A stretch of DNA of 64,000 bases. Origin: Burkholderiales bacterium (GTDB lineage Bacteria > Pseudomonadota > Gammaproteobacteria > Burkholderiales > SHXO01). The stretch spans positions 13,797-77,796 of the forward strand of contig DAIQQA010000003.1 in assembly GCA_036787045.1 (NCBI GenBank). The letters are read 5' to 3'. The notes beneath the pieces are model-generated. The model saw only the letters and a list, made by a program, of their open reading frames with translations. It did not search any database and was not told where the DNA came from. Of the stretch, positions 4,814 through 61,840 are shown one piece after another. The position numbers were made by a program, and so were the translations under genes. Every line of letters starts with the position of its first letter. The stretch's first letter is position 1.

Positions 4814-4849
4814 ACCTCTCACCACGAAGGCACGAAGACACGAAGAAAA
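4814..4849. repeat. Solo family-A arm (CACGAAG type)
   Basis: acctctcaccacgaaggcacgaagacacgaagaa matches the reverse complement of the 32094-32127 arm at 32/34 positions; no partner arm seen nearby. Confidence 0.75.
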
Positions 4850-5587: not shown

Positions 5588-6037
5588 CTATCTGACCGCG
5601 TAGCCCAGGGCGTTCAGCTGCTCGTAGAGCTGGCGCCGTGTGGCTGCGACATCCGCTGGGCGGTTATCGCGGAAGCGTCTCGCCTCGTCGGCCGTGTAAG
5701 GCCGGAAGTCCTGGGGCAGGGACTCCCCTGCGAACGTCGTGACGACGTAGTTGGTTACTGCCGCGCGCCGGTCATCGGGCAGGCCAGCATTCATGAGCCC
5801 GGGTACCTGCATCAGGAAGGCACGTCCCTCGGGCAAACGCAGAAAATGGCCCACTTGGTCACGGAAATCCGGGACGCCGAACTCCGGATGGCCGCTGCCA
5901 TCCATCGAGTGGCAGCCGGAGCAGTGCAGCACGTAGTCGTGCTCGCTGCCCTGGTAGGTCTTGACGTCGGCCCGGCCGGCGAATGCAACGCAACCAAGCA
6001 GCGCACTCGCGATGATCAGTGCTGGCCGAGTGCTCAT
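5588..6037 (-). CDS. Periplasmic monoheme cytochrome c
   Basis: Signal peptide then CSGCH heme motif; start overlaps the upstream cytochrome stop. Confidence 0.85.
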   Translation of the reverse strand: MSTRPALIIASALLGCVAFAGRADVKTYQGSEHDYVLHCSGCHSMDGSGHPEFGVPDFRDQVGHFLRLPEGRAFLMQVPGLMNAGLPDDRRAAVTNYVVTTFAGESLPQDFRPYTADEARRFRDNRPADVAATRRQLYEQLNALGYAVR

Positions 6038-6498
6038 GGCGCGAGGATCTTGGTGCGCAGCTGACGCTGCTCGGTGCTCGCGTGCGGGGTCGCGCGCACG
6101 GACGCCATCTCCGCGGCATCGTACGGCTTCCAGTCGGGGGAGAGGTGCGCTGCGTTCAGCACGGAAGCCACGTGATTGGCCAGCCCGGCTACCTGCTCGT
6201 CGTTCAGCTGCCCTTGCGCGGGCATGCCACTGTTGAAGACCGCGTCGCCGACCCTGATCTGACCGGTGAGCCCGAAGGCGATCACGCGCGGCAGGTAGCT
6301 GCGCTCGGCGACCAGCTTCCGCCAGTGCGCGCCCTCGAGCGGCGGGGCCAGGCCCGGCGTGCCGCTGCCATCGGCCTGGTGGCAGGCGCTGCAGTTCTGA
6401 ACGAACAGGCTGGCGGTGGCGGGGTCCTGCGCGTTCGCCGCCGCCGTGGCGAACGCCAGTACTACCCAGGCAAATGCAGTGTGCCCGTCACGCCGCAT
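6034..6498 (-). CDS. Periplasmic class I monoheme cytochrome c
   Basis: Signal peptide, CSACH motif, GMP candidate distal Met; overlaps the mauA-like stop. Confidence 0.85.
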   Translation of the reverse strand: MRRDGHTAFAWVVLAFATAAANAQDPATASLFVQNCSACHQADGSGTPGLAPPLEGAHWRKLVAERSYLPRVIAFGLTGQIRVGDAVFNSGMPAQGQLNDEQVAGLANHVASVLNAAHLSPDWKPYDAAEMASVRATPHASTEQRQLRTKILAP

Positions 6499-7027
6499 CC
6501 GATACGCCGACGATCACCGACACCGTGCAGTGATACATGGTCGCCGTGTTGGCCATGCACCAGTTGATGTCGTTGAACACGCCCATGCGGTAGCCCGGGC
6601 GCTCGCGCTCGTTGAAGTTGCACAGGCAGCGGCCGCACGCGGTCTTGCCGCAGCAGTCGTTGTAGCTCACCAGGTAGTCCTTGCCGTCCTTCGGGTTCTT
6701 GCAGGTGCCCACCCAGGTGACCTTGGAGGCCTCGGCGCCGGGCGGGCAGGATGTGATCGACCCGCCGCAGCATCCGCACAGGAACCCGTCCAGCGCGCAA
6801 TTGCGCCAATACTCGCACGCCATCGGGTCGTTCGGCCCGCCGCCGCCACCGCCACCGTGCTGGGCGTAGGCCTTGCCGGAGCGGTCGAACGGGAGCATGG
6901 GCAGCACTGCGCTGCCCACCAGCGCAGCGCCGAGCTTGGCCACCGCACTGCGGCGGCTGGTGAGCTGCGCGGCGTGGCGCACGCGGCGCTCGGTGAAGCG
7001 ATCAAGCCATTTTTCGAAGAGCGTCAT
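6488..7027 (-). CDS. mauA: TTQ amine dehydrogenase light chain (MauA/AauA-like)
   Basis: Tat-like SRRSAVAKLG leader, Cys-rich core, TWVGTC and NDINWC carrying the two TTQ-forming Trp equivalents; GGAGG RBS before ATG 7027. Confidence 0.9.
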   Translation of the reverse strand: MTLFEKWLDRFTERRVRHAAQLTSRRSAVAKLGAALVGSAVLPMLPFDRSGKAYAQHGGGGGGGPNDPMACEYWRNCALDGFLCGCCGGSITSCPPGAEASKVTWVGTCKNPKDGKDYLVSYNDCCGKTACGRCLCNFNERERPGYRMGVFNDINWCMANTATMYHCTVSVIVGVSDAA

Positions 7028-13266: not shown

Positions 13267-13320
13267 GCCGTTACTCTAATCAGCCCGCGGGCGTGAGCAT
13301 GTTGTGTTGACGAACACCCT

Positions 13321-13506
13321 AACCACGGAGGATACGGGGACGCGGAGGAAACCGACTGTGTCCACGGCGCAAACCCGCCGACCCGGGACGCAGTCGTTTG
13401 TATCACTTCACGCCCGCACGGCCAGCTGTCCCGATGTCTGCTCTCCCGCCAGTTCTGGTGATTGGCTTCGGTCGCCCTCCGTGTCCACCGTGTTCTCCGT
13501 GGTGAA
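13321..13506. repeat. Family-A paired inverted element (CACGGAG type)
   Basis: Left arm aaccacggaggatacggggacgcggaggaaa (13321-13351); right arm ctccgtgtccaccgtgttctccgtggtgaa (13477-13506). Confidence 0.8.
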
Positions 13507-13535
13507 GGTCTTGCTTGAGGGCCTTGAGGACGGAC

Positions 13536-16462: not shown

Positions 16463-16647
16463 GAACCACGGAGGACACGGAGGAAAGTCGATGTGGCTCC
16501 AAGATCGCGAAGCTGCCCGGACCCTTGCAGGCAGCTGTGCATACGTCACGCGAAGTGAATTGATGTGCATCCGCTGCCGCCCGGCACGAACGATCCAGGC
16601 ACGCACATCTTCGAGCTCTCGCCTTCCTCCGTGTCCACCGCGGTTCA
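16463..16647. repeat. Family-A paired inverted element (CACGGAG type)
   Basis: Left gaaccacggaggacacggaggaaag (16463-16487); right ttcctccgtgtccaccgcggttca (16624-16647), whose terminal TCA is the TetR stop codon. Confidence 0.8.
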
Positions 16648-21531: not shown

Positions 21532-21711
21532 CTAGCAGGCTGTTGAAAAATGCCGCCAACCAGTCCCCTCTCCCCTTGCGGGAGAGGGGTAGGGTGACGG
21601 GTCAGAACCGGATGCCGTGGAGACATGCCGTTGGAATGAGACGCCTGAGCGTTCACCCTCCCTCCGACCCTCTCCCGTCGGGAGAGAGGGCGCTTTTCAA
21701 CACCCCGCCAG
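21532..21711. mobile_element. MITE-like element, family D (CTAGCAGGCTGTTGAAAA termini), containing a family-B palindrome pair
   Basis: Left end ctagcaggctgttgaaaa; right end ttttcaacaccccgccag (15/18 inverted match). Inside: cccctctccccttgcgggagaggggtagggtgacggg (21565-21601) and ccctccctccgaccctctcccgtcgggagagaggg (21656-21690). Confidence 0.75.
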
Positions 21712-21802: not shown

Positions 21803-21835
21803 CCGAGGTTTGATTGCGTCTTGAGTAGCGATGCG

Positions 21836-23293
21836 ATGAGCGAAACCCCTGCGCCGGGCAAAGTGATCTGCGATGCGTGCCCGGTGCTGTGCCAGATCAG
21901 CGAGGGGCGTACCGGGGCGTGCGACCGCTGGGGGAACTTCGGCGGCAAGCTGACGCGGGTGGACCCGGTCGTGCTGTTCAGGAAGGTCGTGGGCGAGTCG
22001 GGGCAGGTTACCGAGTTCCTCGAGCAGAAGGACTGGGACGGGACCCCGATCTCGGACGCGCCGGTATTCGTGTCCGGCGTGGGCTCCGGCACCACTTACC
22101 CGGACTACAAGCCGGCACCCTTCATCGTCGGATCCCGCCACGAGGGCGTGGACATGGTCACGGTCGTGACCGAGGGCATCTTCAGCTACTGCAGCTTCAA
22201 GATCAAGATCGACACCGACCGCTGGCTCGGCCCGGAGCAAGCCACGGTGCGCTGCAAGGGCGAGGCGGCGGGTCACGTCACCACGATCGAGTACGGATCG
22301 CAGATGCTGTCGCTGGGCGGGGTGCACCACCTCACCGGCGGCAGCAAGAGGGAAGGTCGCGTCACCTGCGACATGATGATGGACCTCGGCAACAAGAAGC
22401 CGGTCGAGGTCGAAGTCGAGGGCGGCGCGCATGTGGTGATTCAGGCCGGCAAGGCGCCCATCGTCAACGGTGTGGAAGAGCAGCGCATGCGCGTGGGCTG
22501 CGGCTCGGCCACCATCGGGATCTTCGCCAAGCAGTGGCACGGCCACGTCGACGAGGTAGTCGTGGTGGACGATCACATCACCGGCATCCTCACCGAGCAC
22601 CAGGCAGGAAGGTTCCTCGCCATGCCGCCTTCCGGGATCAGGATCAAAGGCCGCAAGTCCACTCCGGGCCGCTACTTCCAGGTGGCCAACCCGGGCACCG
22701 GCTGGGGCGGTACCGACATCACCGACCCGCTGACCATCGTCACCGGCTTCGAGCCCAAGCTGGCGCGGCCCGGCAGCCGCATTCTGATGGTGTCCACCAC
22801 GGGGGAGGACTCTGCCTACTTCATCCTCGACGACAAACTGCGCATGACGCCCGCCGAGATGCCGGACGCGGTACGGAAGGTGGTCGAGCGCATCGGGGAG
22901 AACTGCGAGCCAGCGCTGTGCACGGTGCTGTTTCTCGCCGGCGCAGGCGGGAGCCTGCGCGCAGGTGTCACGGAGAACCCCGTGCGCCTCACGCGCTCGA
23001 TCAAGGATCTGCTGACCAAGGTGACCTGTGGCGGCGCGCCGGTGTACGTATGGCCGGGCGGCGGCATCACGGTGATGGTGGATGTCACGCGCATGCCCGA
23101 CAACTCCTTCGGCTGGGTGCCAACGCCTGCGATCGTCGCGCCCATCGAGTTCACCATGCGCCTGTCCGACTACGCTACATTGGGCGGGCATATGGACCGC
23201 GTGCGCACCGTCGAAGACGTGCTCAAGAGCGAGCGCGTGCGCGTGGTCGGCTGGGACGGGCTGAATCCGTGGCCGGTTGGGCGTGAGGCGTGA
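21836..23293 (+). CDS. hnr: 6-hydroxynicotinate reductase (Fe-S flavoprotein)
   Basis: N-terminal CDACPVLC..GACDRW cluster, PDYKPAPFIV, VTEGIFSYC, RMRVGCGSATIG, ENCEP; next to Mo-hydroxylase and in the same cluster as enamidase. Confidence 0.85.
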   Translation: MSETPAPGKVICDACPVLCQISEGRTGACDRWGNFGGKLTRVDPVVLFRKVVGESGQVTEFLEQKDWDGTPISDAPVFVSGVGSGTTYPDYKPAPFIVGSRHEGVDMVTVVTEGIFSYCSFKIKIDTDRWLGPEQATVRCKGEAAGHVTTIEYGSQMLSLGGVHHLTGGSKREGRVTCDMMMDLGNKKPVEVEVEGGAHVVIQAGKAPIVNGVEEQRMRVGCGSATIGIFAKQWHGHVDEVVVVDDHITGILTEHQAGRFLAMPPSGIRIKGRKSTPGRYFQVANPGTGWGGTDITDPLTIVTGFEPKLARPGSRILMVSTTGEDSAYFILDDKLRMTPAEMPDAVRKVVERIGENCEPALCTVLFLAGAGGSLRAGVTENPVRLTRSIKDLLTKVTCGGAPVYVWPGGGITVMVDVTRMPDNSFGWVPTPAIVAPIEFTMRLSDYATLGGHMDRVRTVEDVLKSERVRVVGWDGLNPWPVGREA

Positions 23294-23475
23294 GGCGTGA
23301 GGCGTGAGGCGTGAGGCGTGAGGCGTTCGATGATATGGCGAACCAAATAGCATACTCCCTCTCTCCCGCGAGCGGGGGAGAGGGCTGGGGTGAGAGGGAC
23401 CCCTCGCCCCTCACGCCTCATACCTCACCCACGGGATGCGGAGACGCTTACCGCCTCCCGCCTCCAGCCTCACCG
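23284..23475. repeat. Family-C heptamer element: (TGAGGCG)x6 left arm, inverted heptamer right arm, internal family-B palindrome
   Basis: Six perfect TGAGGCG copies (23284-23325); ctccctctctcccgcgagcgggggagagggctggggtgagaggg (23356-23398); inverted heptamers at 23405-23430 and 23452-23472. Confidence 0.9.
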
Positions 23476-24354
23476 AGCGGCGCCACGCGCGCGCGCTTCC
23501 CTGACGGCCGCCTACACTTCCACCACGGCCCGATCGATCTCGTCATCGGCGCAACCGGCGCGCCGGCGGCCATCGAAGCGGGGATGGAGCAGGCGTGGAC
23601 GCGATTCGAGTCGGTTCTGAGTGAACTGGTCGGCGAGTTGACGCTGCTGCGCACGCCGGTGCAGCACTCGCTTGGCGTCCGCGGGCCGATCGCACAGCGT
23701 ATGGTCGCAGCCTGCTTTCCTCATCGCGCGCAGTTCATCACCCCCATGGCGGCAGTGGCGGGCGCGGTCGCGGACGAGATCATCGAGTTCTTTCGCGCTC
23801 AGGCGGGTGTGCGCAGCGCGTACGTGAACAATGGCGGCGACATCGCCCTGCATCTGGCACACGATGACTGCTACCGGGTGGGCCTGCTTGCCGATCTGGG
23901 TCGGGTCAGGCCGCTCGAGCCCTGGCGGCTCGACGGCGATTTCGAGCTGCGGGCCGAGTCACCCGTGCGCGGTGTGGCTACCAGCGGCTGGCGCGGCCGC
24001 AGCTTCAGTCTGGGTATCGCAGACAGCGTCACCGTGCTGGCACGCAGCGCCGCCGAGGCGGATGCGGCCGCGACTATGATTGCCAACGCCGTAAACGTTG
24101 CAGACCCGGCGATCGTGCGCAAGCCTGCCTGTGACCTCAAAGACGACACTGATCTGGGAGACAGGCTGGTGACAGTCGAGGTCGGAGCGCTGTCGCATCG
24201 GCAGATCGACGCTGCGCTGACGGCCGGAGAGCAGCTCGCGCAACGTCTGCGAGAAGAAGGTACTATCGCGGCTGCCGTCTTGTGTCTGCAAGGTGCGGCG
24301 CAGGTGTGCGGGACCGGCGCAACACTGGGCGCGCGCAACGACTGCTGGGTTTGA
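23335..24354 (+). CDS. UPF0280 family / ApbE-like protein
   Basis: PDGRLHFHHGPIDL, FITPMAAVAGAVAD, YVNNGGDIA, GVATSGWRGRSFSLGIADSVTV, AATMIANAV. Start uncertain: the only in-frame starts lie inside the repeat element. Confidence 0.8.
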   Translation: MANQIAYSLSPASGGEGWGERDPSPLTPHTSPTGCGDAYRLPPPASPSGATRARFPDGRLHFHHGPIDLVIGATGAPAAIEAGMEQAWTRFESVLSELVGELTLLRTPVQHSLGVRGPIAQRMVAACFPHRAQFITPMAAVAGAVADEIIEFFRAQAGVRSAYVNNGGDIALHLAHDDCYRVGLLADLGRVRPLEPWRLDGDFELRAESPVRGVATSGWRGRSFSLGIADSVTVLARSAAEADAAATMIANAVNVADPAIVRKPACDLKDDTDLGDRLVTVEVGALSHRQIDAALTAGEQLAQRLREEGTIAAAVLCLQGAAQVCGTGATLGARNDCWV

Positions 24355-24433
24355 CTCGAGCGGTGCCGGCGCCGCCGTGCGGTTCCTCGCGGTCTGTGCG
24401 CCCCTGTGCCGAGGTGTGCTGAGTCAGCAGCGG

Positions 24434-25012
24434 ATGATCGAGATACGCGAAGTCTTCACCCAGGTGGAAGAGATCTTCCACGAGTTCGGCCCGCCCACGC
24501 AGCGGCCGCTCAAGCGTGGCGCCGTTGCAGCCGTGCTCACCAACCCCTTCGCGGGGCGCTACGAGCCGAACATCGTGCCGATGATGGAAGCACTTAGTCC
24601 ATTGGGTTTGGACATGTCGCGTCGGCTTCTCGCGGCCATGGCCGTGACGCCCGAGCAGATCGAGGGCTACGGCAAGGGCGCAATCGTGGGCGCCGCCGGC
24701 GAGCTCGAGCATGGTGCGCTCTGGCACGTCCCGGGCGGCTATGCGATGCGCGAGCTCCTGGGCGGCGCGAAAGCCATCGTGCCGTCCGCCAAGAAGGTGG
24801 GCGCCCCCGGAACCAAGCTCGACGTGCCGGTGACGCACATCAACGCGAGCTACGTCCGCAGCCACTTCGACGCGATGGAGGTGTACGTTCCCGGCGCACC
24901 GGCGGCCGACGAGTTGATCACCATCCTGGTGATGACCACCGGGCCGCGCGTGCACGAGCGGGTGGGCGGCTTGCGGGCGTCCGAGATCAAGGGCGCCGAC
25001 GGCCTGCGGTGA
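24434..25012 (+). CDS. AA_synth (DUF1185) family protein
   Basis: AAVLTNPFAGRY, EGYGKGAIVGAAGELEHGA, INASYVRSHFDAME, GPRVHERVGGL. Confidence 0.88.
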   Translation: MIEIREVFTQVEEIFHEFGPPTQRPLKRGAVAAVLTNPFAGRYEPNIVPMMEALSPLGLDMSRRLLAAMAVTPEQIEGYGKGAIVGAAGELEHGALWHVPGGYAMRELLGGAKAIVPSAKKVGAPGTKLDVPVTHINASYVRSHFDAMEVYVPGAPAADELITILVMTTGPRVHERVGGLRASEIKGADGLR

Positions 25013-25033
25013 GGTTCAGACAATGTAACACCC

Positions 25034-25234
25034 CAACGCAGGGGCGCAGAGAACGCGGAGGACGCAGAGGAAGAAGCCATGAAGAGGGACAGACGATAGG
25101 ACCAAGTCTGCGCGAAGACCAGCAACCGGGCGCCACGTAGGAGCATGGCTGACCGAAAGTGCAACCGAATAATATGCATGCGCAATAGAGTCATGCACGT
25201 GAATCGCTCTGCGTTCTCTGCGCCTCTGCGTTGA
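25034..25234. repeat. Family-A paired inverted element (CGCAGAG type)
   Basis: Left caacgcaggggcgcagagaacgcggaggacgcagag (from 25034); right ctctgcgttctctgcgcctctgcgttga (25207-25234). Confidence 0.85.
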
Positions 25235-25250
25235 GATTCTGGGGGGGAGA

Positions 25251-25835
25251 ATGAAAGCGAGCATCAGGAAAATCGTCGTCCAGGTGGACGAAATCCGTCA
25301 CGAGATGGGCCGCGATGTGAACCCGCCCACGCGGCGTGCTGTGGCGATGGCAGTCATTGCCAATCCCTTCGCTGCGCGCTACCAGGAGGACCTCACCGAG
25401 CTGATGGATATCGGCGAGGAGCTGGGCGGGCTGCTGGGAGAGCGCTGCGTGCAGGCGCTGGGGATCCAGCCGGCACAGGCGGAAAGCTACGGCAAAGCAG
25501 CCATTGTGGGCGAAGGCGGTGAGCTGGAGCACGCGGCCGCGATCCTGCACCCGAAGCTCGGTGCCCCGCTGCGCAAGGCCGTCGAGAGAGGTGCGGCGCT
25601 GGTACCCTCGGCCAAGAAGATGGGGACGTTGGGAACGGCCATCGACGTGCCCCTGGGGCACAAGGATGCGGCCTACGTCCGCAGCCACTTCGACGCGGTC
25701 GAGGCGCGAGTAAGCGACGCGCCGCGGCCGAACGAGATCGTGGTGGCGGTGGCCGTCACCGACAGCGGCCGGCCGCTGGCACGCGTGGGCGGGCTGTCCA
25801 AGCACGAGATTAAGGGCCAGGACGGGTTGCGCTGA
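25251..25835 (+). CDS. AA_synth (DUF1185) family protein, second paralogue
   Basis: AVIANPFAARY, ESYGKAAIVGEGGELEHAA, KDAAYVRSHFDAVE, GRPLARVGGL. Confidence 0.88.
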   Translation: MKASIRKIVVQVDEIRHEMGRDVNPPTRRAVAMAVIANPFAARYQEDLTELMDIGEELGGLLGERCVQALGIQPAQAESYGKAAIVGEGGELEHAAAILHPKLGAPLRKAVERGAALVPSAKKMGTLGTAIDVPLGHKDAAYVRSHFDAVEARVSDAPRPNEIVVAVAVTDSGRPLARVGGLSKHEIKGQDGLR

Positions 25836-25863
25836 CGTTCCCGACCGCAGAGGAATCCAGCCG

Positions 25864-27549
25864 ATGACCACCGGTATCGATGCCAAGCCGTGGCTGAAGA
25901 GCTACCCGCCCGGTGTGCCCGCCGAGCTGAAACCGTTGGAGTTCCAGTCGATTCCGCAGATGCTCGAGGCGAGCGTCAAGCGCTACCGCAACCAGCCCGC
26001 CTTCGAGAGCTTCGGCGTTCAGATCACGTTCGGCGAGCTCGACCGCCTCTCGCGGGACTTCGCCGCCTACCTGCAGAGCAAGCTGGGGCTGAAGAAAGGC
26101 GACCGCATCGCTGTCATGATGCCCAACATCCTCCAGTACCCGGTCGCGGTCTACGGGATCCTGCGCGCCGGGCTGGTGGTGGTCAGCGTGAACCCGCTGT
26201 ACACCGCGCGCGAGCTGGAGCATCAGCTCAAAGACTCCGGCGCCGTCGCGATCGTGATCTTCGAGAGCGCGGCGCACACTCTTCAGGAGGTCATCGCGCG
26301 CACCCCGGTCAGGCACGTCATCGTGGCTTCTGTCGGCGACATGCTGGGTTTTATCAAAGGCGGCCTGATCAACCTGGTGTTCCGCCAGGTCAAGAAGATG
26401 GTCAAGCCCTGGAGCATTCCCGGCGCAGTACGCTTTCCGCAAGCGCTCGCCGACGGCGCCGGAGCGCCCATGAATGCTTCGGCCCTGGCGGCGGACGACC
26501 TGGCCTTCCTGCAGTACACCGGGGGCACCACCGGGGTGTCGAAGGGGGCGATGCTGCAGCACCGCCACGTCCTGTCCAACGTCGAGCAGGTTCTTGCCTA
26601 CACCGGAAACACCGTGCGCCCGGGGCAGGAGGTCGCGATCGCACCCCTGCCTTTCTATCACATCCTGGCGCTGGTGCTGAACTGCATGATGTTCGTGCGC
26701 GGGGGCGGGTTGCAGATCCTGATTGCCAACCCGCGGGATATCCCGAATCTGGTCAAGACCCTGGGCAGCAGCCGCTTCACGTTCTTCGTCGGCGTCAACA
26801 CGCTGTTCAACGCGCTGATCCACAACGAGGCGTTCGCGAAAGTGGACTTCACCCACCTGCGCATGGCCGGGGGTGGCGGCGCGCCAGTTCAGTTGGCTGT
26901 GGCCAAGCGCTGGAAGGAGATTACCGGGCGGGTGCTCTCGGAAGGCTACGGCCTCACCGAAACGTCGGGCGCCGTGTCCATCAACCGGCAGGACATCGAG
27001 GAGCACACCGGCACGACCGGTCTGCCGCTGCCGGGCACGGAGGTCGAGATCCGCGATGAGGTCGAGCGCGCGCTGCCGCACGGCGCGGTCGGACAGGTGT
27101 TCGTGCGCGGACCGCAGGTCATGGCCGGCTACTGGCAGCGGCCGGACGAGACCGCGAAGGTGCTGCGCTCCGACGGCTGGCTCGCCACCGGCGACATGGG
27201 CCTGATCACACCGGAGGGCTATCTCAAGATCGTGGACCGCGTGAAGGACATGATCCTGGTGTCCGGCTTCAACGTCTACCCGAACGAGATCGAGGATGTG
27301 GTTGCGATGCACCCGGGCGTGCTGGAGGCCTGTGCCATCGGCGTGCCGGACGAGAACACCGGCGAGGGGGTCAAGCTGTTCGTGGTGCGCAAGGATCCCG
27401 CGCTCACTGCGCAGTCCTTGATCCAGCACTGTCGCGAGAATCTCACCGGCTACAAGGTCCCGCGGCATGTCGAGTTCCGCGACGCGCTGCCCAAGAGCCC
27501 GGTGGGGAAGATCCTGCGGCGCGAGCTGCGCGACGCACCTAAGGCGTGA
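25864..27549 (+). CDS. Acyl-CoA synthetase (FadD-like AMP-binding enzyme)
   Basis: YTGGTTGVSKG, EGYGLTET, TGDMG, DRVKDMILVSGFNVYPNEIE, PKSPVGKILRR. Confidence 0.92.
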   Translation: MTTGIDAKPWLKSYPPGVPAELKPLEFQSIPQMLEASVKRYRNQPAFESFGVQITFGELDRLSRDFAAYLQSKLGLKKGDRIAVMMPNILQYPVAVYGILRAGLVVVSVNPLYTARELEHQLKDSGAVAIVIFESAAHTLQEVIARTPVRHVIVASVGDMLGFIKGGLINLVFRQVKKMVKPWSIPGAVRFPQALADGAGAPMNASALAADDLAFLQYTGGTTGVSKGAMLQHRHVLSNVEQVLAYTGNTVRPGQEVAIAPLPFYHILALVLNCMMFVRGGGLQILIANPRDIPNLVKTLGSSRFTFFVGVNTLFNALIHNEAFAKVDFTHLRMAGGGGAPVQLAVAKRWKEITGRVLSEGYGLTETSGAVSINRQDIEEHTGTTGLPLPGTEVEIRDEVERALPHGAVGQVFVRGPQVMAGYWQRPDETAKVLRSDGWLATGDMGLITPEGYLKIVDRVKDMILVSGFNVYPNEIEDVVAMHPGVLEACAIGVPDENTGEGVKLFVVRKDPALTAQSLIQHCRENLTGYKVPRHVEFRDALPKSPVGKILRRELRDAPKA

Positions 27550-27555
27550 AAATCT

Positions 27556-27754
27556 TGAACCACGGAGGACACGGTGGACACGGAGGAAAGCTCGTGTTTG
27601 CGTTTTTTGCTGCACGCTGGCGACCCAGGGTCGAGCCTCGATTGATCCCGAGCGGAGCGTCGCCATCGTAGCCATAGCTAAGCTGCGCCCTCCAACTCCC
27701 GTCCTTCTCACGAATCAGGGTTTCCTCCGTGCCCACCGTGTCCTACGTGGTTCA
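27556..27754. repeat. Family-A paired inverted element (CACGGAG type)
   Basis: Left tgaaccacggaggacacggtggacacggaggaaa (27556-27589) and right arm 27721-27754 are reverse complements at 32/34 positions. Confidence 0.9.
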
Positions 27755-28946
27755 GAAGTTCCTGTTCATGGCAGCTGTGGCAATGCTTGCGTTGCCTGCA
27801 GCCGCCCAGCAGCCGATCCGTATCGGGGAGATCAGCAGCTACTCCGCGGTACCGGCGTTCACCATTCCCTATCGCAACGGCTGGGAGCTGGCCGTCGAGG
27901 AGGTGAACGCAGCAGGCGGGGTGCTGGGGCGCAAGCTGGAGGTGATCTCGCGCGACGACGGCGGCAAGCCGGACGATGCCACCCGGCATGCCAACGAGCT
28001 GCTCACCAGCCACAAGGTCGATCTGTTGGCGGGCACTTTCCTCTCCAACGTCGGCCTGGCTGTCGGCGACATCGCCCGGCGCAACAAGGTGGTGTTCGTG
28101 GCGGCCGAGCCCCTGACCGACGCGCTGGTCTGGGAGCAGGGCAACCGCTACACGTTCCGGCTGCGGCCGAGCACCTACATGCAGGCCGCCATGCTGGCCG
28201 AGGAAGCAGCCAAGCTGCCGGCTAAGCGCTGGGTGACGCTGGCGCCCAACTACGAGTATGGGCAATCGGCGGTGGCGAGCTTCAAGGAGCTGCTAAAGGC
28301 GAAGCGACCCGACGTCGAGTTCGTCGGGGAGCAATGGCCGGCGCTGGGCAAGCTCGAGGCGGGGGCGACTGTGCAAGCGCTCTCCGCGGCCAGGCCGGAG
28401 GCGATCTTCAACGTCACCTTCGGTGCGGACCTGACCAAGTTCGTGCGCGAGGGGAACCTGCGCGGGCTGTTCGAAGACCGCGCCGTAGTCAGCATGCTGT
28501 CCGGCGAGCCGGAATACCTCGACCCGCTCAAGGACGAGACGCCGGTGGGATGGATCGTCACCGGCTATCCGTGGGAGCAGATCAAGCTGCCGGCGCACGA
28601 GAAGTTCGTCCAGGCCTACGAGAAGCGCTTCGAGGATACGCCCCGGCTCGGTTCGGTGGTCGGTTATACCACCTTCATGGCGATCGCCGGAGCCCTGAAG
28701 AAGGCCGGCTCGACCGACAGCGAGAAACTGATCACGGCCTTCCGCGGCCTCGAGGTGCAAAGCGTGTTCGGTCCGATCACGTTCCGCGCCATCGATCAGC
28801 AGTCCACGCTGGGCGCCTTCGTCGGCAGGCTCGACCTCAGGGGCCGCAAGGGTGTGATGGTGGACTGGCGGTATGCGGACGGCAAGGACTACATGCCGCC
28901 GGATGCCGTGGTGAGGAAGAAGCGGCCGGCGGAAGCGATGAAGTAA
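27747..28946 (+). CDS. Branched-chain-amino-acid-type ABC substrate-binding protein
   Basis: Signal peptide MVQKFLFMAAVAMLALPAAA (GTG 27747 or ATG 27768); NGWELAVEEVNAAGGVLGRK, APNYEYGQSA, TGYPW. Confidence 0.9.
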   Translation: MVQKFLFMAAVAMLALPAAAQQPIRIGEISSYSAVPAFTIPYRNGWELAVEEVNAAGGVLGRKLEVISRDDGGKPDDATRHANELLTSHKVDLLAGTFLSNVGLAVGDIARRNKVVFVAAEPLTDALVWEQGNRYTFRLRPSTYMQAAMLAEEAAKLPAKRWVTLAPNYEYGQSAVASFKELLKAKRPDVEFVGEQWPALGKLEAGATVQALSAARPEAIFNVTFGADLTKFVREGNLRGLFEDRAVVSMLSGEPEYLDPLKDETPVGWIVTGYPWEQIKLPAHEKFVQAYEKRFEDTPRLGSVVGYTTFMAIAGALKKAGSTDSEKLITAFRGLEVQSVFGPITFRAIDQQSTLGAFVGRLDLRGRKGVMVDWRYADGKDYMPPDAVVRKKRPAEAMK

Positions 28947-28949
28947 TCG

Positions 28950-29146
28950 TGAGGCGCGAGGCGAGAGGCGTGAGGCGAGCGGTGCCGCCGCGCAGCATCC
29001 GCGCATTCCGGGGCGTCGCAGGGGGCGGACTGCACAGCGTTTCGGCTGCGACCGTCGCGTACCTGGGCCACGCGTTGCGGCGCCACCCGTCGGAAGCCAA
29101 CGCAGCGCAAGGCTTTCGCCTCACGCCTCGCGCCTCATGCCTCACG
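28950..29146. repeat. Family-C heptamer inverted element
   Basis: tgaggcg cgaggcg agaggcg tgaggcg (28950-28977) versus cgcctcacgcctcgcgcctcatgcctcacg (29117-29146). Confidence 0.85.
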
Positions 29147-30996
29147 CAGACGTGACCGTCTACCTCATCCAGTTCCTCACCGGCCTGTCCCACGCTGCGA
29201 CCCTCTTCCTGGTCGCGTCGGGCCTGTCCATCATCTTCGGCGTGACCCGCATCGTGAACTTCGCGCACGGGTCGTTTTACATGCTGGGCGCCTACGCAGC
29301 CTACAGCGCGACCGAGCTCCTGATGGAGCGGCTCGGCGCGCCGCTGGGTTTCTGGTCCGGGATTGTGGTGGCTGCTGTAGCGGTAGGTCTGGTCGGCGTG
29401 GTGATGGAAGTCCTGTTGCTGCGCCGGATCTACCGCGCACCCGAGCTGTTCCAGCTGCTCGCGACCTTCGGCGTGGTGCTGGTGGTGCAGGATGTCGCGT
29501 TGGCGATCTGGGGCCGGGAGGACTTGTTCGCCCCCCGCGCGCCGGGTTTGAAGGGGACGGTGGAGATTCTGGGCGAGCGCTTCCCGCAGTATCACCTGTT
29601 CCTGATCGTGCTGGGACCGATCGTGCTGGGGCTGCTGTGGCTACTGTTCCACCGCTCGCGCTGGGGTGTGCTGGTACGGGCTGCGACCCAGGACCGCGAG
29701 ATGGCCGGTGCACTGGGTGTCAACGAGCGATGGCTGTTCACGAGCGTGCTGTTCCTCGGCTCGTTCCTGGCCGGGCTGGGGGGCGCGCTGCAGATCCCCA
29801 AGGAGGCCGTGAACCTGCAGATGGACATCCACATCATCGCCGAGGCATTCGTGGTGGTAGTGATCGGCGGGATGGGCAGCGTGACCGGTGCTTTTCTCGC
29901 GTCCCTGCTGGTGGGTCTGCTGTCGGCCTTCGGGATCCTCATATTCCCGCAGGTGACGCTCGTGCTGACCTTTCTGGTGATGGCGGTGGTGCTGGTCATC
30001 CGGCCGTACGGACTGCTGGGGAAGCCGGAGGGACGCACGCGGGTCTCTGCGCAGTCGGCCGAGCTGCCCATCCGTCCTGCGAGCCGGCCGCTGCTGGGCG
30101 GCGCGGCGGCGTTGCTTGGCCTTCTCCTGCTGCTGCCGGCGCTGACTGGCGAGTACGCGCAGCTGATCGCCATCGAGATCCTCATCCTCGCGCTTTTCGC
30201 CGCCAGCCTGCACTTCATCATGAGCATCGGTGGGCTGGTGTCCTTCGGTCACGCCGTCTACTTCGGCATCGGCGCCTATGCCTGTGCACTGCTGGTGAAG
30301 CACTTGGCCTCGCCGATGCCCATCAACCTGGTCGCGGCGCCGCTCGCCGCGGCAGCGGTCGCGGTCCTGTTCGGCTGGTTCTGCATCCGGCTGTCGGGCG
30401 TCTATCTCGCCATGCTCACGCTCGCCTTCGCCCAGATCGTCTGGTCGGTGGCTTTCACGTCGGGCTGGACCGGAGGCGACAACGGCGTTCTGGGCGTCTG
30501 GCCTCCGGCCTGGCTCGGGTCGAAGACGGCCTACTACTATTTCACGCTGCTCCTAGTCGCCGGGGGTCTGCTGCTGCTCCGGCGCGTGATCTTTTCGCCG
30601 TTCGGCTACGCACTGCGCGCCGGCCGGGACTCGCCGCTGCGCTCGGATGCGATCGGCATCGACGTGCGCCGCCAGCAGTGGGCAGCGTTCGTGCTGGCCG
30701 GTGCCGCGGCCGCGCTGGCCGGCGCTCTGCACGCCTACCACAAAGGCAGCGTATTCCCCGCCGTGCTCGCCATCCCGCAGTCGGTGGACGCGCTGGTCAT
30801 GGTGCTGCTCGGCGGGGTGCAGACGCTCAGCGGCCCGGTCGTGGGAGCCGCCGTCTATCATGCCCTCCAGACCGAAGTGATGCGAAGCACCGACTACTGG
30901 AGGTTCATTCTCGGGGCCGTGATCATTCTTCTGGTGGTGGCGTTCCCGCAGGGGATCGCAGGGTTCGCGCAGCGCTTCGTGAGGCGTGAGGCGTGA
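29137..30996 (+). CDS. Fused LivH-LivM ABC permease
   Basis: SIIFGVTRIVNFAHGSFYMLGAY (LivH part) and GLVSFGHAVYFGIGAY, RLSGVYLAMLTLAFAQ (LivM part) in one 619-aa ORF. Confidence 0.9.
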   Translation: MPHADVTVYLIQFLTGLSHAATLFLVASGLSIIFGVTRIVNFAHGSFYMLGAYAAYSATELLMERLGAPLGFWSGIVVAAVAVGLVGVVMEVLLLRRIYRAPELFQLLATFGVVLVVQDVALAIWGREDLFAPRAPGLKGTVEILGERFPQYHLFLIVLGPIVLGLLWLLFHRSRWGVLVRAATQDREMAGALGVNERWLFTSVLFLGSFLAGLGGALQIPKEAVNLQMDIHIIAEAFVVVVIGGMGSVTGAFLASLLVGLLSAFGILIFPQVTLVLTFLVMAVVLVIRPYGLLGKPEGRTRVSAQSAELPIRPASRPLLGGAAALLGLLLLLPALTGEYAQLIAIEILILALFAASLHFIMSIGGLVSFGHAVYFGIGAYACALLVKHLASPMPINLVAAPLAAAAVAVLFGWFCIRLSGVYLAMLTLAFAQIVWSVAFTSGWTGGDNGVLGVWPPAWLGSKTAYYYFTLLLVAGGLLLLRRVIFSPFGYALRAGRDSPLRSDAIGIDVRRQQWAAFVLAGAAAALAGALHAYHKGSVFPAVLAIPQSVDALVMVLLGGVQTLSGPVVGAAVYHALQTEVMRSTDYWRFILGAVIILLVVAFPQGIAGFAQRFVRREA

Positions 30997-31162
30997 GGCG
31001 TCAGGCGGGAGGTGTTCAATGGTACTGGGTAACGCAATAGATGACTCCCTCTCCCCCGCATGCGGGGGAGAGGGCTGGGGTGGCGGGTACACCTCCCACC
31101 TCCCGCCTCTCGCGTCACTGCAGGCACGGGGGCGCGCCTTACGCCTCACGGCTTTCGCCTCA
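30980..31162. repeat. Family-C heptamer element with internal family-B palindrome (sister of 23284-23475)
   Basis: (TGAGGCG)x3 plus TCAGGCG (30980-31007); ctccctctcccccgcatgcgggggagagggctggggtggcggg (31045-31087); inverted heptamers to 31162. Confidence 0.88.
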
Positions 31163-31170
31163 TCAGAACG

Positions 31171-31941
31171 ATGCCGCTGCTAGCTGTCACAAACCTCAGC
31201 AAATCCTTCGGCGGCGTACAGGCGGTGCGCGACGTCTCCTTCGCGCTCGAACGTGGGCAGCTGCTGGCGCTGATCGGGCCGAACGGCGCGGGCAAGTCCA
31301 CGTGCTTCAATATGCTCAACGGTCAGCTCACGCCGGACAGCGGCACGGTTACTCTCGAAGGCATCGACGTTACCGGCCATCCACCGCGCGAGATCTGGAA
31401 GCGCGGCGTGGGCCGCACTTTTCAGGTGGCGGCCACCTACGGGTCGATGACGGTGCGCGAAAACGTCCAGATGGTCCTGCTGTCTCGTGCGAGGCAGCTG
31501 TTCGACCTGTGGTCTCGCGCCAGCGAGCGCTATCGCGACGAAGCGCTTGCGCTGCTGGGGCAGGTCGGGATGGCGGAGCAGGCCGAGCGTCCCTGCGGCA
31601 TGCTCGCCTATGGCGACGTCAAGCGTGTCGAGCTCGCGATGGCGCTGGCGAACGACCCGAAGCTGCTGTTGATGGACGAGCCCACTGCCGGCATGGCGCC
31701 AAAGGAGCGCAACGACCTGATGGTGCTCACCGCGGAGCTGGCGCGCGAGCGCAACCTCGGCGTGCTGTTCACCGAGCACAGCATGGACGTCGTCTTCACC
31801 TACGCACAGCATGTGCTGGTGCTGACGCGGGGCCGGATCATCGCCCAGGGCTCGCCGGCGCAGGTGCGCGACGATCCCCAGGTTCAGGCGGTATATCTGG
31901 GCACCGGGGCGACGTTCCACGCGCACGCGGCGCTTTCGTGA
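31171..31941 (+). CDS. LivG-type ABC ATP-binding protein
   Basis: [27 protein letters not shown]; ATG 31171 just after the repeat. Confidence 0.9.
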   Translation: MPLLAVTNLSKSFGGVQAVRDVSFALERGQLLALIGPNGAGKSTCFNMLNGQLTPDSGTVTLEGIDVTGHPPREIWKRGVGRTFQVAATYGSMTVRENVQMVLLSRARQLFDLWSRASERYRDEALALLGQVGMAEQAERPCGMLAYGDVKRVELAMALANDPKLLLMDEPTAGMAPKERNDLMVLTAELARERNLGVLFTEHSMDVVFTYAQHVLVLTRGRIIAQGSPAQVRDDPQVQAVYLGTGATFHAHAALS

Positions 31942-31960
31942 TAGCCACGACTCAAGACCT

Positions 31961-32127
31961 ACCGCTCACTACGAAGACACGAAGACACGAAGAAGGACAG
32001 TGCAGCATGGACTGGCCGTGTGTGTCTCAAAGGGATAGCTAGATCGGTTCGAGACGCTACGACACTCACACCATGCAACATTTCCTATTGGTTTTCTTCG
32101 TGCCTTCGTGTCTTCGTGGTGAGAGGT
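31961..32127. repeat. Family-A paired inverted element (CACGAAG type)
   Basis: Arms 31961-31994 and 32094-32127 are reverse complements at 31/34 positions. Confidence 0.9.
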
Positions 32128-32133
32128 AGTGCT

Positions 32134-32844
32134 TTGGAGCCGTTGCTTGTGGTGAGAGGCCTGAGCGCCTGGTACGGCCGGGCGCAGATCCTGTTCGACG
32201 TGTCGCTGGAGGTGGCGCGCGGCGAGGTGGTCGCGCTCATGGGCCGCAATGGTGCGGGTAAGTCGACCACACTGAAGGCCATCATGGGTCTGGTGGACCG
32301 CGTGGGCGGTACAGTGAGCTTCCGCGACCAGCCGCTGCGCGGGCGCAAGCCCTTCGAGGTCGCGCGCCTGGGCCTTGGCTACGTGCCCGAGGACCGGCGG
32401 ATCTTCAGCGAGCTCTCGGTGCTGGAGAATCTCGAGGTCGGCAGACAGCCCGAGCGGGAGGGCGCGCCCACGTGGACGGCGGAGAAGCTGTTCCGCGTGT
32501 TTCCGAATCTCGCCGAAATGCGTGAGCGGCCCGCCGGGCGGATGAGCGGCGGCGAACAGCAGATGCTCACGGTCGCCCGCACACTTATGGGCAATCCGTA
32601 TCTGGTGCTTCTGGACGAACCGTCGGAAGGGATCGCGCCGAAGATCGTGGAGGACATGGCCAACATGATCCTCGAGCTGAAGCAGGAAGGCCTGGCGGTC
32701 GTGCTTTCGGAGCAAAACCTGCACTTCGCGCGGCTGGTGAGTGACCGCGCCTACGTTATCGAGAAGGGTCAGATCCGCTTTCAAGGAGGGCTGGCGGAGC
32801 TCGAAGGAAACGAAGAGGTGAAGAGGGAGTATCTTTCCGTGTAA
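32134..32844 (+). CDS. LivF-type ABC ATP-binding protein
   Basis: GRNGAGKST, YVPEDRRIF, MSGGEQQML, LDEPSEG; likely TTG start at 32134. Confidence 0.88.
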   Translation: MEPLLVVRGLSAWYGRAQILFDVSLEVARGEVVALMGRNGAGKSTTLKAIMGLVDRVGGTVSFRDQPLRGRKPFEVARLGLGYVPEDRRIFSELSVLENLEVGRQPEREGAPTWTAEKLFRVFPNLAEMRERPAGRMSGGEQQMLTVARTLMGNPYLVLLDEPSEGIAPKIVEDMANMILELKQEGLAVVLSEQNLHFARLVSDRAYVIEKGQIRFQGGLAELEGNEEVKREYLSV

Positions 32845-57572: not shown

Positions 57573-58606
57573 TCCTCCTCCTCGTCGTGATGGGTGCGCA
57601 GCGACAGCCAGAGTAGCACCGGGATGATCAGCGTGAAGACGATCACCTCCTTGTAGGCGCTGGCGTAGAAGGAGGCAAAGGACTCGAGCAGCCCAACGAA
57701 CAGGGCTCCGGCGACGGCGATCGGATAGCTGGCGAGCGCGCCGATGATCGCCCCGACGAAGCCCTTCAGGCCCACCAGGAAACCGGTGTCGTAATAGATC
57801 GTGGTGAGCGGGCCGATCAGCACGCCGGAGGCCACACCGATCAGCGCGGCGAGGAAGAAGCATGTCTTGCCCGCAAACGCTGTGCGGATACCGGAGAGCT
57901 TGGCGCCAGCACGGTTGACCGCGGTGGCGCGCAGGGCCTTGCCGAACAGCGTCCGCCCGAAGAAGACGTACAACGCACCGGCCAGCAGCACGCTGCCGCC
58001 ATACACCCACAGGCTCTGGCCCGGCAGCGGCAGGAAACCGATCTCGAGCGTGGCCTCGCTGAAGGCAGGCGTGCGAGAGCCCTCGGCGCCGAACAGGACC
58101 AGGCCGATTCCCGACAGCGCCAGGTGCACGGCGAAGGACACGATCAGCAGTACCAGCACCGGTGCTTCGGCGATCGGCTGATAGACGATTCGATACAGCA
58201 GCGGCCCCAGCGGTACTACCAGCAGGAACGTTAGTGCGATGCGGGCCGGCAGCGGTAGCTCGAGCGGTGCAAGCCAGACGGCGAGCCCGGTGATGGCCGC
58301 CGGCAATGCCAAGTTCCACAGGGCCGCAGGCAGCAGGGCCCTTGGTCGCCGCCGAATGACCGCAACTGCGGCGTCGATGAGGAATGCGACTGCGCCGAAG
58401 ACCAGCAACAACCAGATCGTCCCTGGTACCGTTTCGGTCTGCAGCGTTGCCAGCGTGAGCGCGCCGAAGGCCAGAAACTCGCCCTGTGGGATGAAGACGA
58501 CGCGCGTCACGCTGAACACCAGCACCAGCGCGAGCGCCATCAGCGCGTAGATGGCGCCGTTCGTGAGCCCGTCCTGGGCGAGGAGGGTGGCGATCTGGAA
58601 GTCCAC
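57569..58606 (-). CDS. LivH-type ABC permease
   Basis: [44 protein letters not shown]; GTG 58606. Confidence 0.9.
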
Positions 58607-58609
58607 GTA

Positions 58610-58690
58610 TGAGGCGGGAGGGTCGAGGCGCGAGGCACGAGGGTCGAGGCGCAAGGCCAAGTCGCAAGGCTCGAGCCTCGAGCCTTGCCG
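58610..58690. repeat. Degenerate family-C element
   Basis: tgaggcgggagggtcgaggcgcgaggcacgagggtcgaggcg ... ctcgagcctcgagccttg. Confidence 0.6.
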
Positions 58691-58697
58691 CCCGACG

Positions 58698-60341: not shown

Positions 60342-60356
60342 GGCTACTGCAACAGC

Positions 60357-60531
60357 TCAACGCAAAGACGCAAAGGACGCAAAGAGAAGCGAGAGCACGC
60401 CAGGCTCTCGGCTGGCTTTCTTGGGGCGTCGCGTGCACGCCGAGACCGCGGCGAGGAGTCGGTCGTCGTGCCACGTTGTCCTTGCATCGCTTTCCTTTGC
60501 GGCCTTTGCGCTCTTTGCGCCTTTGCGTTGA
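60357..60531. repeat. Family-A paired inverted element (CGCAAAG type)
   Basis: Left tcaacgcaaagacgcaaaggacgcaaagag (60357-60386); right ctttgcggcctttgcgctctttgcgcctttgcgttga (60495-60531). Confidence 0.88.
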
Positions 60532-60545
60532 GATGTAAGGGGTAT

Positions 60546-61613: not shown

Positions 61614-61643
61614 TTACTGCTTACTCAAGCCCAGGAAGCGCGC

Positions 61644-61823
61644 TCACCACGAAGGACACGAAGGACACGAAGAAAAACAAGCGGAGGGGCACTACGCTGA
61701 GCGGGAGTCGGTTGACGTGGCTTCCACGCGGTGGCTTGCATTACCACACTTGCCAACCCGTCAAGGAGGAACCTGAGCTTCCCTGGGCCTTCCTTCGTGT
61801 TCCTTCGTGTCCTTCGTGGTTCA
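61644..61823. repeat. Family-A paired inverted element (CACGAAG type)
   Basis: Left tcaccacgaaggacacgaaggacacgaagaa (61644-61674); right ccttcgtgttccttcgtgtccttcgtggttca (61792-61823). Confidence 0.88.
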
Positions 61824-61840
61824 CGCGGTTCGCAGTCGAG

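Follow-up and report, generated by a model that had tools for sequence, protein, structure and literature searches.

The sequence studied here is a 64-kb window (the whole stretch of DNA that was analysed; 66.9% G+C) from an uncultured soil Burkholderiales bacterium, and the subject of this report is a set of short elements whose arms are tandem arrays of the heptamer TGAGGCG and which lie between the genes of one operon. The genes concerned form a single plus-strand operon in the order hnr, a UPF0280/ApbE-like gene, two AA_synth genes, an AMP-ligase gene, a livK-like gene, livHM, livG, livF and an amidohydrolase gene, and the named closest relatives of the window's proteins are uncultured Burkholderiales. 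The elements are designated E1 (between hnr and the UPF0280 gene), E2 (between livHM and livG) and E3 (between livK and livHM); the junctions are numbered J1 (hnr and UPF0280), J3 (AMP-ligase and livK), J4 (livK and livHM) and J5 (livHM and livG). Tandem arrays were scored with Tandem Repeats Finder (TRF), and matches to the heptamer dimer (at most one mismatch) were compared with those in 100 shuffles. The genes and the parts of the elements are listed below, the repeats being unstranded.

21821-23293, plus strand: hnr, a 6-hydroxynicotinate-reductase-like gene (from its translation, homologue names and orthologue tails), whose stop is the TGA of the second E1 heptamer unit.
23280-23326: left arm of E1, (TGAGGCG)6.7, 100% perfect, TRF score 94, with a copy number that is polymorphic between strains.
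23327-23354: conserved spacer of E1, TTCGATGATATGGCGAACCAAATAGCATA, from the alignment, with an ATG at 23335 in the frame of the downstream gene.
23355-23398: core palindrome and G-rich tail of E1 (CTCCCTCTCTCCCGCGAGCGGGGGAGAGGGCTGGGGTGAGAGGG), a TMECO-type intrastrand triplex motif, called family B in the first-pass annotation.
23399-23473: right arms of E1, a degenerate (CNCCTCA)4 at 23399-23428 and (CCGCCTC)-type units at 23445-23473.
23311-24354, plus strand: UPF0280/ApbE-like gene, with a conserved N-terminus from near 23480.
27729-28946, plus strand: livK-like substrate-binding protein gene, with its stop TAA at 28944-28946, 1-2 nt before E3.
28948-29147: E3, which separates the livK stop from the livHM start (left arm 28948-28984, interior 28985-29116, right arm 29117-29147).
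29152-30996, plus strand: livHM, a fused permease gene, with its stop TGA at 30994-30996 in the third unit of E2.
30978-31162: E2 composite (left arm 30978-31014, spacer 31015-31044, triplex-type palindrome 31045-31087).
31089-31118 (inner) and 31135-31162 (outer): right arms of E2, from the inverse-arm search and the fold.
31171-31941, plus strand: livG, an ATPase gene, with its ATG 8 nt past E2.
58611-58660: degenerate solo array of GAGGCGN-type units with no partner arm, which reads on the minus strand as a CGCCTC-type tract.

Matches to the heptamer dimer number 15 in the window, where 0.13 would be expected; none of the 100 shuffles contains as many, and all 15 fall within four sites, the areas of 23280, 28948, 30978 and 58611. 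The TRF copy numbers of the main arrays are 6.7, 4.1 and 5.0. Because 7 mod 3 is 1, such an array presents TGA in all three frames; this property, which the first-pass annotation had pointed out, holds here, and perfect or near-perfect arrays lie at 23280, 28948 and 30978. The same annotation had placed the ends of hnr and livHM inside arrays, and both do end there: the Hnr tail reads ...WPVGREA before the stop TGA at 23291-23293, and the LivHM tail reads ...RFVRREA before the stop TGA at 30994-30996. An inverse (CGCCTCA)n-type arm follows 70-140 nt past the left array in E1, E2 and E3, which yields non-coding elements of approximately 192 bp (E1) and 185 bp (E2), and of about 185-200 bp for all three. 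Two further copies had been described, one with a different interior and a degenerate one near 58610. The former corresponds to E3 (28948-29147), the interior of which is unrelated to the E1/E2 core, so that among the elements of the window only the interiors of E1 and E2 are related; the latter corresponds to the solo array.

Folded as single strands, E1-E3 form long hairpins with minimum free energies from -116 to -123 kcal/mol (z-scores from -4.7 to -6.8), and from the base of each stem the upstream stop and the downstream start are no more than a few nucleotides away. The stop-free inverse arm adjoins the start codons, ending at 29147 before the GTG at 29152 and at 31162 before the ATG at 31171; GTG 29152 is the true start of livHM, whose homologues begin MTVYLIQ. 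No sigma-70-like promoter was observed at E1-E3, and none of the three is among the terminator-like sites or carries the intrinsic terminator signature of a GC-rich stem followed by a T-run. The comparison with Rfam 15 returned nothing at the gathering score, the permissive scan of 23000-32300 gave chance-level matches only (E of at least 1.8), and no tRNA was found in the scan. Since TGAGGCG lacks a GGG run, no G-quadruplex is expected.

Evidence that the element is dispersed as a unit comes from its interior. An alignment of E1 and E2 with three copies on other contigs (L123, L124 and L127) contains about 80 invariant columns, GTTCRATGRTA..AATAG..ACTCCCTCTC.CCCG....CGGGGGAGAGGG.TGGGGTG, and the order of parts is a heptamer arm, a GTTCRATGRTA..AATAG spacer, the palindrome CTCCCTCTC.CCCG-loop-CGGGGGAGAGGG.TGGGGTG with its G-rich tail, and an inverse arm. 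The L123 copy is the orthologous E2, one unit shorter, in a relative with a 96% identical LivHM. The L124 copy lies between an OmpR-type response-regulator gene (tail ...FVPARREA) and livHM, and that of L127 is flanked by BatA-like and VWA genes. A homologous core is therefore shared by composites at four unrelated gene junctions (E1, E2, L124 and L127), which indicates that the composite is copied around as a unit. The first-pass annotation had suggested as much for a composite of about 190 bp from the internal layout shared by E1 and E2; the invariant columns bear out the layout, and the two further junctions fit the movement. A metagenome scan for the composite gave nine pattern matches, of which one was a true copy (L127) and the others were chance. 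L127 belongs to the same sample series as L137, whose contig encodes a protein identical to the LivHM of the window, and a further element on it has the conserved termini of the window element at 60352.

The core shared by E1 and E2 (23355-23398 and 31045-31087) displays the arrangement of pyrimidine block, loop, purine block, linker and G-rich block listed for TMECO motifs (Table 1 of PMC4666352), and by its sequence layout the palindrome is a known TMECO-type triplex motif. It also moves without the heptamer arms: it is present inside the CACGGAGGA-armed element of L001 and absent from the orthologous element of the window. Separately, an inverted doublet of TMECO-type palindromes, REPIN-like and about 80 nt apart, lies at 21566-21690, upstream of hnr, and a betaproteobacterial contig from a metagenome-assembled genome (L019) contains four TMECO-type inverted doublets, at about 400-1100 and 5900-6600.

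Orthologous operons on two contigs (L001 and L002, 83-87% nucleotide identity) and in a third relative (L125) provide the corresponding empty sites. Elements are missing at J1, J4 and J5 in L002, at J5 in L001, and at J4 and J5 in L125, and the alignments break exactly at the arms, giving sharp boundaries. The J5 empty sites read ...CGCGAGGCGGGAGGCGTGATG in L001, where the livHM stop and the livG start overlap as TGATG, ...AGCAGGCGTGAGGCGTGAAGGGATG in L125 and ...GTGAGGCGCGCGGCGTGAGGTCGAGCCCATG in L002. At J4 the empty site of L002 and L125 is AAGTAGGCGTGACC, with one unit overlapping the GTG start, as compared with TAATCGTGAGGCG...CGCAGACGTGACC in the filled site; at J1 the empty site of L002 is ...CCGGTGGGGTAAGCGG and its Hnr ends in WPVG. 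The empty sites thus hold one or two heptamer-like units (GGCGTGA) right at the stop or start codon, the proto-units being CGAGGCGGGAGGCGTGA, GTGAGGCGCGCGGCGTGAGG or AGGCGTGAGGCGTGA at J5 and TAGGCGTGACC at J4. The pentamer CGTGA stands at both E3 junctions and once in the empty site, and it forms part of the arm unit.

These sites also permit the protein tails to be traced. LivHM encoded at empty sites ends in RREA or RRAA (RRAA in L002), from a ...AGGCGTGAGGCGTGA-like sequence (L001, L125, L002, P0004 and P0007), and more distant orthologues end in RRDAH, RREAR and similar tails. The ancestral tail consists of two heptamer-like units in which TGA serves as the stop and GAGG or AAGG as the livG ribosome-binding site. 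Because RREA is found at empty sites as well, the tail is ancestral and LivHM was left unchanged by E2. For Hnr, the core end NPWP[VIL]G is conserved in 118 homologues, the closest of which stop there, and the tails are hypervariable; a REA ending occurs only in the window, in P0121 and in two others. By this comparison of tails, E1 added three residues (REA) to Hnr. The expectation that orthologues free of the element would not end in REA, which the first-pass annotation had raised, consequently holds for Hnr (WPVG) and fails for LivHM (RREA or RRAA at empty sites).

At the strain level the arms are variable. Contigs from several samples encode the LivHM of the window and, where the operon is covered, carry elements that are otherwise identical or one base apart; the left array of E1 has six units in the window, seven in L136, four in L138 and two in L135, whose Hnr is 98% identical. 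A change of unit number within otherwise identical sequence points to slippage of a perfect microsatellite, and the two units of L135 indicate that three units, and hence stops in all frames, are not maintained. The occupant of a junction may differ as well: at J4 the arms are of TGAGGCG in the window and of GTGAAGG in L123, and L124 carries the composite there; J3 holds CACGGAGGA arms in the window and in L001 (with differing interiors) and CACAGAGGR arms in L002.

At least nine more hairpins occur in the window, with arms of tandem 8-9-mers (CACGGAGGA, CACGAAGGA, ACGCAGAGG, ACGCAAAGG and ACGAAGAC), and they mostly occupy the intervals between genes of like orientation in the hnr-liv and paa operons. 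They are listed below, again unstranded unless stated.

13313-13512, 16463-16646 and, in part, 4823-4848: sister hairpins with tandem arm units resembling a Shine-Dalgarno (SD) sequence.
25034-25233: unit ACGCAGAGG, termini CAACGCAG...CTGCGTTG, between the two AA_synth genes.
27556-27754: unit CACGGAGGA, between the AMP-ligase gene and livK (J3).
31954-32134: unit ACGAAGAC, between livG and livF.
60352-60536: unit ACGCAAAGG, termini CTCAACGCAAAG...CTTTGCGTTGAG, in the paa region, where the genes read on the minus strand.
61635-61831: unit CACGAAGGA, between paaE-like and paaD-like genes.
63436-63589: unit CGCAAAGG, adjoining paaB.

Within a family the termini are conserved for about 30 nt past the repeat units (CTCAACGCAAAG... 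and TGAACCACGG...). The 8- and 9-mer units contain no stop codons, and all-frame termination is therefore not a property of the class. Polarity is constant: in every element of the window the purine-rich, SD-like arm (GAGG or AGGA) is 5' and the CCTC-type arm 3', and all left arms contain GAGG, AGGA or AAGG. Near the solo array, the minus strand of 58540-58700 carries a CGCCTC-type tract that stops 4 nt short of the start GTG belonging to a second livH-like gene, as at livHM; a small palindrome lies upstream of this gene, where the stop codon of an FAA-hydrolase gene is situated in the loop of a GC-rich hairpin.

The combination of proto-units, variable arms and locus-specific units could be taken to mean that the hairpins arose in place, stem-loops or TGAGG stop/SD junctions having grown by slippage and quasi-palindrome template switching and no transposition having occurred. 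Consistent with this, heptamers are the commonest long simple sequence repeats (SSRs) and slippage has been proposed for them (Mrazek 2007, as related in PMC4679880 and PMC4692102); unit numbers are polymorphic, the targets hold proto-units, most interiors are unique, both arms have changed together at J3 (CACGGAGGA versus CACAGAGGR), and (TGAGGCG)3 occurs in many phyla. Growth in place could nevertheless not be the source of the homologous cores of E1, E2, L124 and L127, since these stand at four unrelated junctions, and the shared termini of about 30 nt past the units (CTCAACGCAAAG and TGAACCACGG) and the sharp boundaries against the empty sites also speak against it. We consider an origin purely in place distinctly improbable.

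The distribution of the heptamer was surveyed by a scan for (TGAGGCG)3 in one genome per species, which gave at least 119 loci, spread over many phyla, and 125 arrays among the matches listed, to which the following counts refer. A partner arm of CGCCTCA type is found downstream of 22 of the 125 arrays and upstream of one, mainly in Beta- and Gammaproteobacteria and with loops of about 18-260 nt. A co-directional gene ends at most 150 nt upstream of 51 arrays; in 17 of them the stop lies inside the array and in 11 the array begins 0-5 nt after it, so arrays are associated with stop codons beyond uniform placement, in agreement with the above-chance overlap that the first-pass annotation had anticipated. 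When sampled arrays were read individually, 23 of 117 (about 20%) supply the stop of a plausible upstream gene, and arrays give rise to the tails VRREA and EA or stop the frame at once. The TGAGGCG array of Bacteroidota, Chloroflexota and Verrucomicrobiota lies within mosaics of other TGANNCG-type heptamers; the mosaic loci L007, L008, L028, L046, L062, L064, L079, L099 and L116 contain TGAGACG, TGAATCG, TAAATCG, GCAAAGG and GTTGGCA arrays, which partly form hairpins of their own in an organisation like that of cyanobacterial STRR.

Insertion was not always harmless to the neighbouring genes. In L002 the UPF0280 gene starts at TTG 4577, overlapping the end of hnr, and the equivalent codon in the window is GTG 23268, from which the frame meets the first TGA of the array (23284) after five codons. 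Upstream of the conserved UPF0280 N-terminus only two start codons are in frame, GTG 23311 within the array and ATG 23335 within the spacer; the protein therefore starts inside E1 or is truncated. Unless it is truncated, a start inside E1 must entail translation through the triplex motif and the right arm, which would add about 45-55 residues; the alignment with NCBIfam NF003322 begins at residue 58 of the open reading frame (ORF) from GTG 23311. At J5 of L124, whose LivHM is 95% identical, a solo right arm is fused into livHM and the native C-terminus is replaced by ...AVRLTPHSSRTSCC, read from the stop-free strand. On the same contig (1-445 and 2200-2339) the OmpR-type regulator gene precedes livHM in place of livK, which could reflect a rearrangement or a chimeric assembly via arrays; the solo arm at the 3' end of livHM reads RLTPHSSRTSCC. 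In L001 a 1.3-kb insertion between livK and livHM (2663-3993) contains a 70-aa ORF with no Pfam match, together with direct repeats about 180 bp long and arrays of the GGAGGAGCT/GGAGGGTCA type.

These observations bear on the proposal of the first-pass annotation that the heptamer is an all-frame stop cassette, adapted to landing in gene 3' ends with little damage. An invaded reading frame does gain at most VRREA through the TGA in three frames, Hnr gained REA only, and arrays furnish the stop of the upstream gene in the 23 of 117 sampled cases and, by gene calls, the 17 of 51 given above. Little damage does not hold for the UPF0280 gene, whose start was severed by E1, or for L124, where a stop-free arm replaced the LivHM C-terminus. 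As to design, all-frame stops are automatic for any stop-containing 7-mer, as has been noted for TAACTGA (PMC4679880), the LivHM terminus is ancestral, sister elements of the same operon have stop-free 8- and 9-mer arms, and one strain retains only two units. An adaptive cassette is accordingly very doubtful, and the idea of a design is not sustained.

The position of the hairpins within operons raises the question of a function in RNA. A hairpin is present at every junction of the hnr-liv operon, and at several paa junctions, and the elements are therefore transcribed through. They might act as functional intercistronic RNA hairpins, either in mRNA stabilisation and processing or in translational coupling, with the SD-like 5' arm retaining ribosomes. 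Analogues are the REP (repetitive extragenic palindromic) sequence between malE and malF and the RNase III sites in Correia elements, and E3 follows the gene of a binding protein as REP follows malE. The very stable stems, with a stop and a start flanking their base, the GAGG, AGGA or AAGG in all left arms and the invariant polarity agree with such a role, as does the greater conservation of E2 relative to synonymous sites. After insertion, livHM and livG lack an SD sequence near the start, the nearest GAGG being that of the left arm, brought to the start by the stem, whereas the empty sites have GGAGG or GAGG 6-11 nt before the livHM and livG starts; this geometry would be compatible with tolerated or preserved coupling. 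However, of the stem mismatches 13 are G.U pairs when read on the transcribed strand, 12 when read on the opposite strand, and 26 are of other kinds, and with such symmetric G.U counts RNA-level selection on the stems is not detectable. Furthermore, sister genomes manage without elements at the same junctions, arm copy number drifts, interiors are not conserved, and E1 diverges faster than synonymous sites. Taken with these points, we regard a functional RNA hairpin as somewhat unlikely.

Conserved ends and variable middles, in hairpins placed between genes of like orientation, are also reminiscent of integron attC sites, and the arms might then be sites of site-specific recombination or the flanks of a cargo, such as the four-helix-bundle genes of the 23S intervening-sequence (IVS) type that the first-pass annotation had associated with heptamer arms. 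One sister family does begin GCTCAAC, which fits RYYYAAC, and ends GTTGAGA. The TGAGGCG family, by contrast, has no AAC/GTT cores, its flanks are syntenic operon genes, and no integrase or transposase is present among the 25 of the window's 73 Pfam families that were covered; attC identity was rejected on these grounds. The cargo association found no support: none of 150 ORFs (85-190 aa, at most 120 nt from arrays, among the at least 119 loci listed) matched PF05635, the neighbours being housekeeping genes, and an all-versus-all BLASTP of 1168 small ORFs gave no family in more than two loci and no cargo gene. Long-range arm pairs were likewise rejected as cargo carriers, since the arms of L077 enclose the housekeeping gene maf, and the 'partner' arm of L040 was set aside as a cargo pair, lying beside a tRNA-like sequence (read by eye). 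Both the recombination-site and the cargo versions are extremely improbable.

Some nuclease genes were observed in passing. A small PD-(D/E)XK gene (PDDEXK_3) lies at 4273-4653 of L033, about 1.1 kb from the TGAGGCG array, and one related ORF occurs in another locus; PDDEXK_3-type genes accompany 23S-IVS-type elements. At 59-4213 of the window, an ORF of 1385 aa has superfamily-1 helicase domains (AAA_11/AAA_12) and, at its C-terminus, an endonuclease domain (MTES_1575/DUF559), and the window also contains an ORF of the Uma2 endonuclease family.

The explanation that we favour, at about even confidence, is that E1-E3 are non-autonomous hairpin repeats, similar to MITEs (miniature transposable elements bounded by inverted repeats), with microsatellite termini, copied into heptamer-like junctions and remodelled by slippage, the all-frame stop being a by-product of survivorship. 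E1-E3 possess terminal inverted repeats, are shorter than about 300 bp and contain no ORF; dispersed copies with a homologous interior are found for the composite and not for E3 or the other families. The element would be copied into sites with heptamer microhomology, by template switching or recombination at the tracts or by a trans-acting transposase, and the arms would lengthen and shorten through replication slippage. As the unit holds TGA, GAGG and GTG, it would offer a stop, an SD-like motif and a start in every frame, and the folded stem would bring the upstream stop and the downstream start together again. Insertions at junctions would therefore add at most five residues (VRREA) and be tolerated, and the 'stop cassette' would in turn be a survivorship property of a stop-containing 7-mer rather than a device. 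Most probably the elements are passengers, selfish or neutral, with occasional collateral effects, such as the new UPF0280 start and the L124 C-terminus.

Several observations weigh against this explanation. E2 is 99% identical between the window and L123, compared with 90.9% at livHM third codon positions, and such conservation could be a sign of function or constraint and not of neutrality. The trend is reversed in E1, with 92.4% identity between the window and L135 as against 95.3% at hnr third positions; the two divergences contradict each other, and no consistent constraint follows. Strict arm polarity has no explanation under pure neutrality, and most sister interiors are unrelated behind conserved termini, which is unusual for MITEs. 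There is no clear target-site duplication: E2 and L127 have no clean one, and the GTGA/CGTGA of E3 is indistinguishable from the arm unit. No mobilising enzyme was found, with no transposase or integrase among the Pfam families covered and none between the long-range arm pairs. Finally, the coverage comprises one operon neighbourhood and the genome sample of at least 119 loci.

A further reading assigns the elements to a wider, as yet undescribed class of hairpins with arms of tandem, SD-like 7-9-nt units, always purine-rich at the 5' side, which would occupy nearly all gaps between operon genes in this Burkholderiales lineage and serve there as re-coupling modules. The stem would hold stop and start together, the stop/SD/GTG unit would let ribosomes terminate and re-engage in any frame, genes about 200 nt apart would keep coupled translation, and slippage would tune the length and register of the stem. 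This we judge unlikely.

With regard to significance, the arrays mislead gene callers: the livHM start has been placed inside the right arm, and public calls of the UPF0280 gene conflict, at 347 aa (from the array) or 256 aa. Metagenome contigs can, moreover, break or join at arrays. The comparison supplies base-pair-resolved empty and filled sites for a heptamer-armed hairpin, documents strain-level slippage, and presents a stop-containing microsatellite, a triplex motif and a hairpin travelling together, as well as an element from which a conserved gene, unless truncated, has received its start codon and an extension at the N-terminus. Should the hairpins preserve coupling or shape mRNA stability, they would represent a compact natural insulation of operon junctions; if they are not functional, they would offer a clean model of selfish-repeat survival in tightly packed operons. 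The dispersed composite of SSR arms and triplex core, the target sites at base-pair level and the donation of a start codon to a conserved gene were not found described. A literature search on the bare heptamer returned primer noise only.

Among known systems, the SSR survey of Mrazek (2007), in the account given in PMC4679880, identifies heptamers as the most abundant long class, with slippage proposed and Burkholderia among the richest genera. This Burkholderiales genome is similarly rich in arrays of 7-9 nt, within the unit range of 5-11 nt of that survey, which, as described in PMC4679880, treats arrays singly, without paired hairpins or a dispersed composite. Each Xanthomonas genome contains 70-75 convergent (GGGAATC)n...(GATTCCC)n pairs capable of folding into stem-loops; the arrays undergo transcription, and their length differs from one relative to another (Rehm et al. 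2015, PMC4692102). Both systems consist of tandem heptamers, mostly intergenic and near a neighbouring ORF, in convergent pairs, and the elements described here likewise have at least three copies of a 7-nt unit with a convergent reverse-complement array nearby. They differ in having another unit without G-tracts, a conserved spacer and triplex loop dispersed as a unit, and defined empty sites.

The TAACTGA repeats of Beggiatoaceae, Cyanobacteria and Bacteroidetes provide stops in all frames, with 13-14 sets overlapping the ends of upstream ORFs (MacGregor 2015, PMC4679880); the arrays lie within a few nucleotides of start codons without an SD sequence, and their phyletic spread is wide and patchy (PMC4679880). 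As in that system, the TGAGGCG arrays give all-frame stops in the forward orientation and overlap only the last codons of the ORF. Forward direct repeats before start codons, which make up almost all of the TAACTGA cases (one inverted case is known), are not the arrangement here: the arrays are proteobacterial and paired into hairpins, and it is the stop-free inverse arm that adjoins the starts.

In common with MITEs, REPINs, Correia/NEMIS, ERIC, REP/BIME and MIRU, the elements are shorter than 300 bp, non-coding, bounded by terminal inverted repeats and intergenic or intercistronic; all are co-transcribed, occur as several dispersed copies and may be present in one relative and absent from another, and MIRU also sits between operon genes with stop/start overlaps. 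Unlike those families, the present elements have microsatellite termini of drifting copy number, and the sister elements mostly share termini only; in comparison with MITEs and REP, no target-site duplication, transposase or RAYT is demonstrated (from the 25 of 73 window Pfam families listed; no genome-wide RAYT search was made). The TMECO motifs of E. coli, for example CCCTCTCCCTGTGGGAGAGGGCCGGGGTGAGGGC, occupy intergenic positions, often come as inverted pairs and have been associated with local instability (Holder et al. 2015, PMC4666352). The E1/E2 core, CCCTCTC.CCC-loop-GGGGGAGAGGG-CT-GGGGTGAGAGGG, has the same layout and near-identical blocks (PMC4666352; Hoyne et al. 2000); in the present elements the motif, predicted from sequence, lies within the loop of a hairpin with heptamer arms and moves together with that hairpin. 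Collectively, the elements combine known ingredients, namely inverted heptamer arrays, all-frame-stop heptamers and the TMECO motif.

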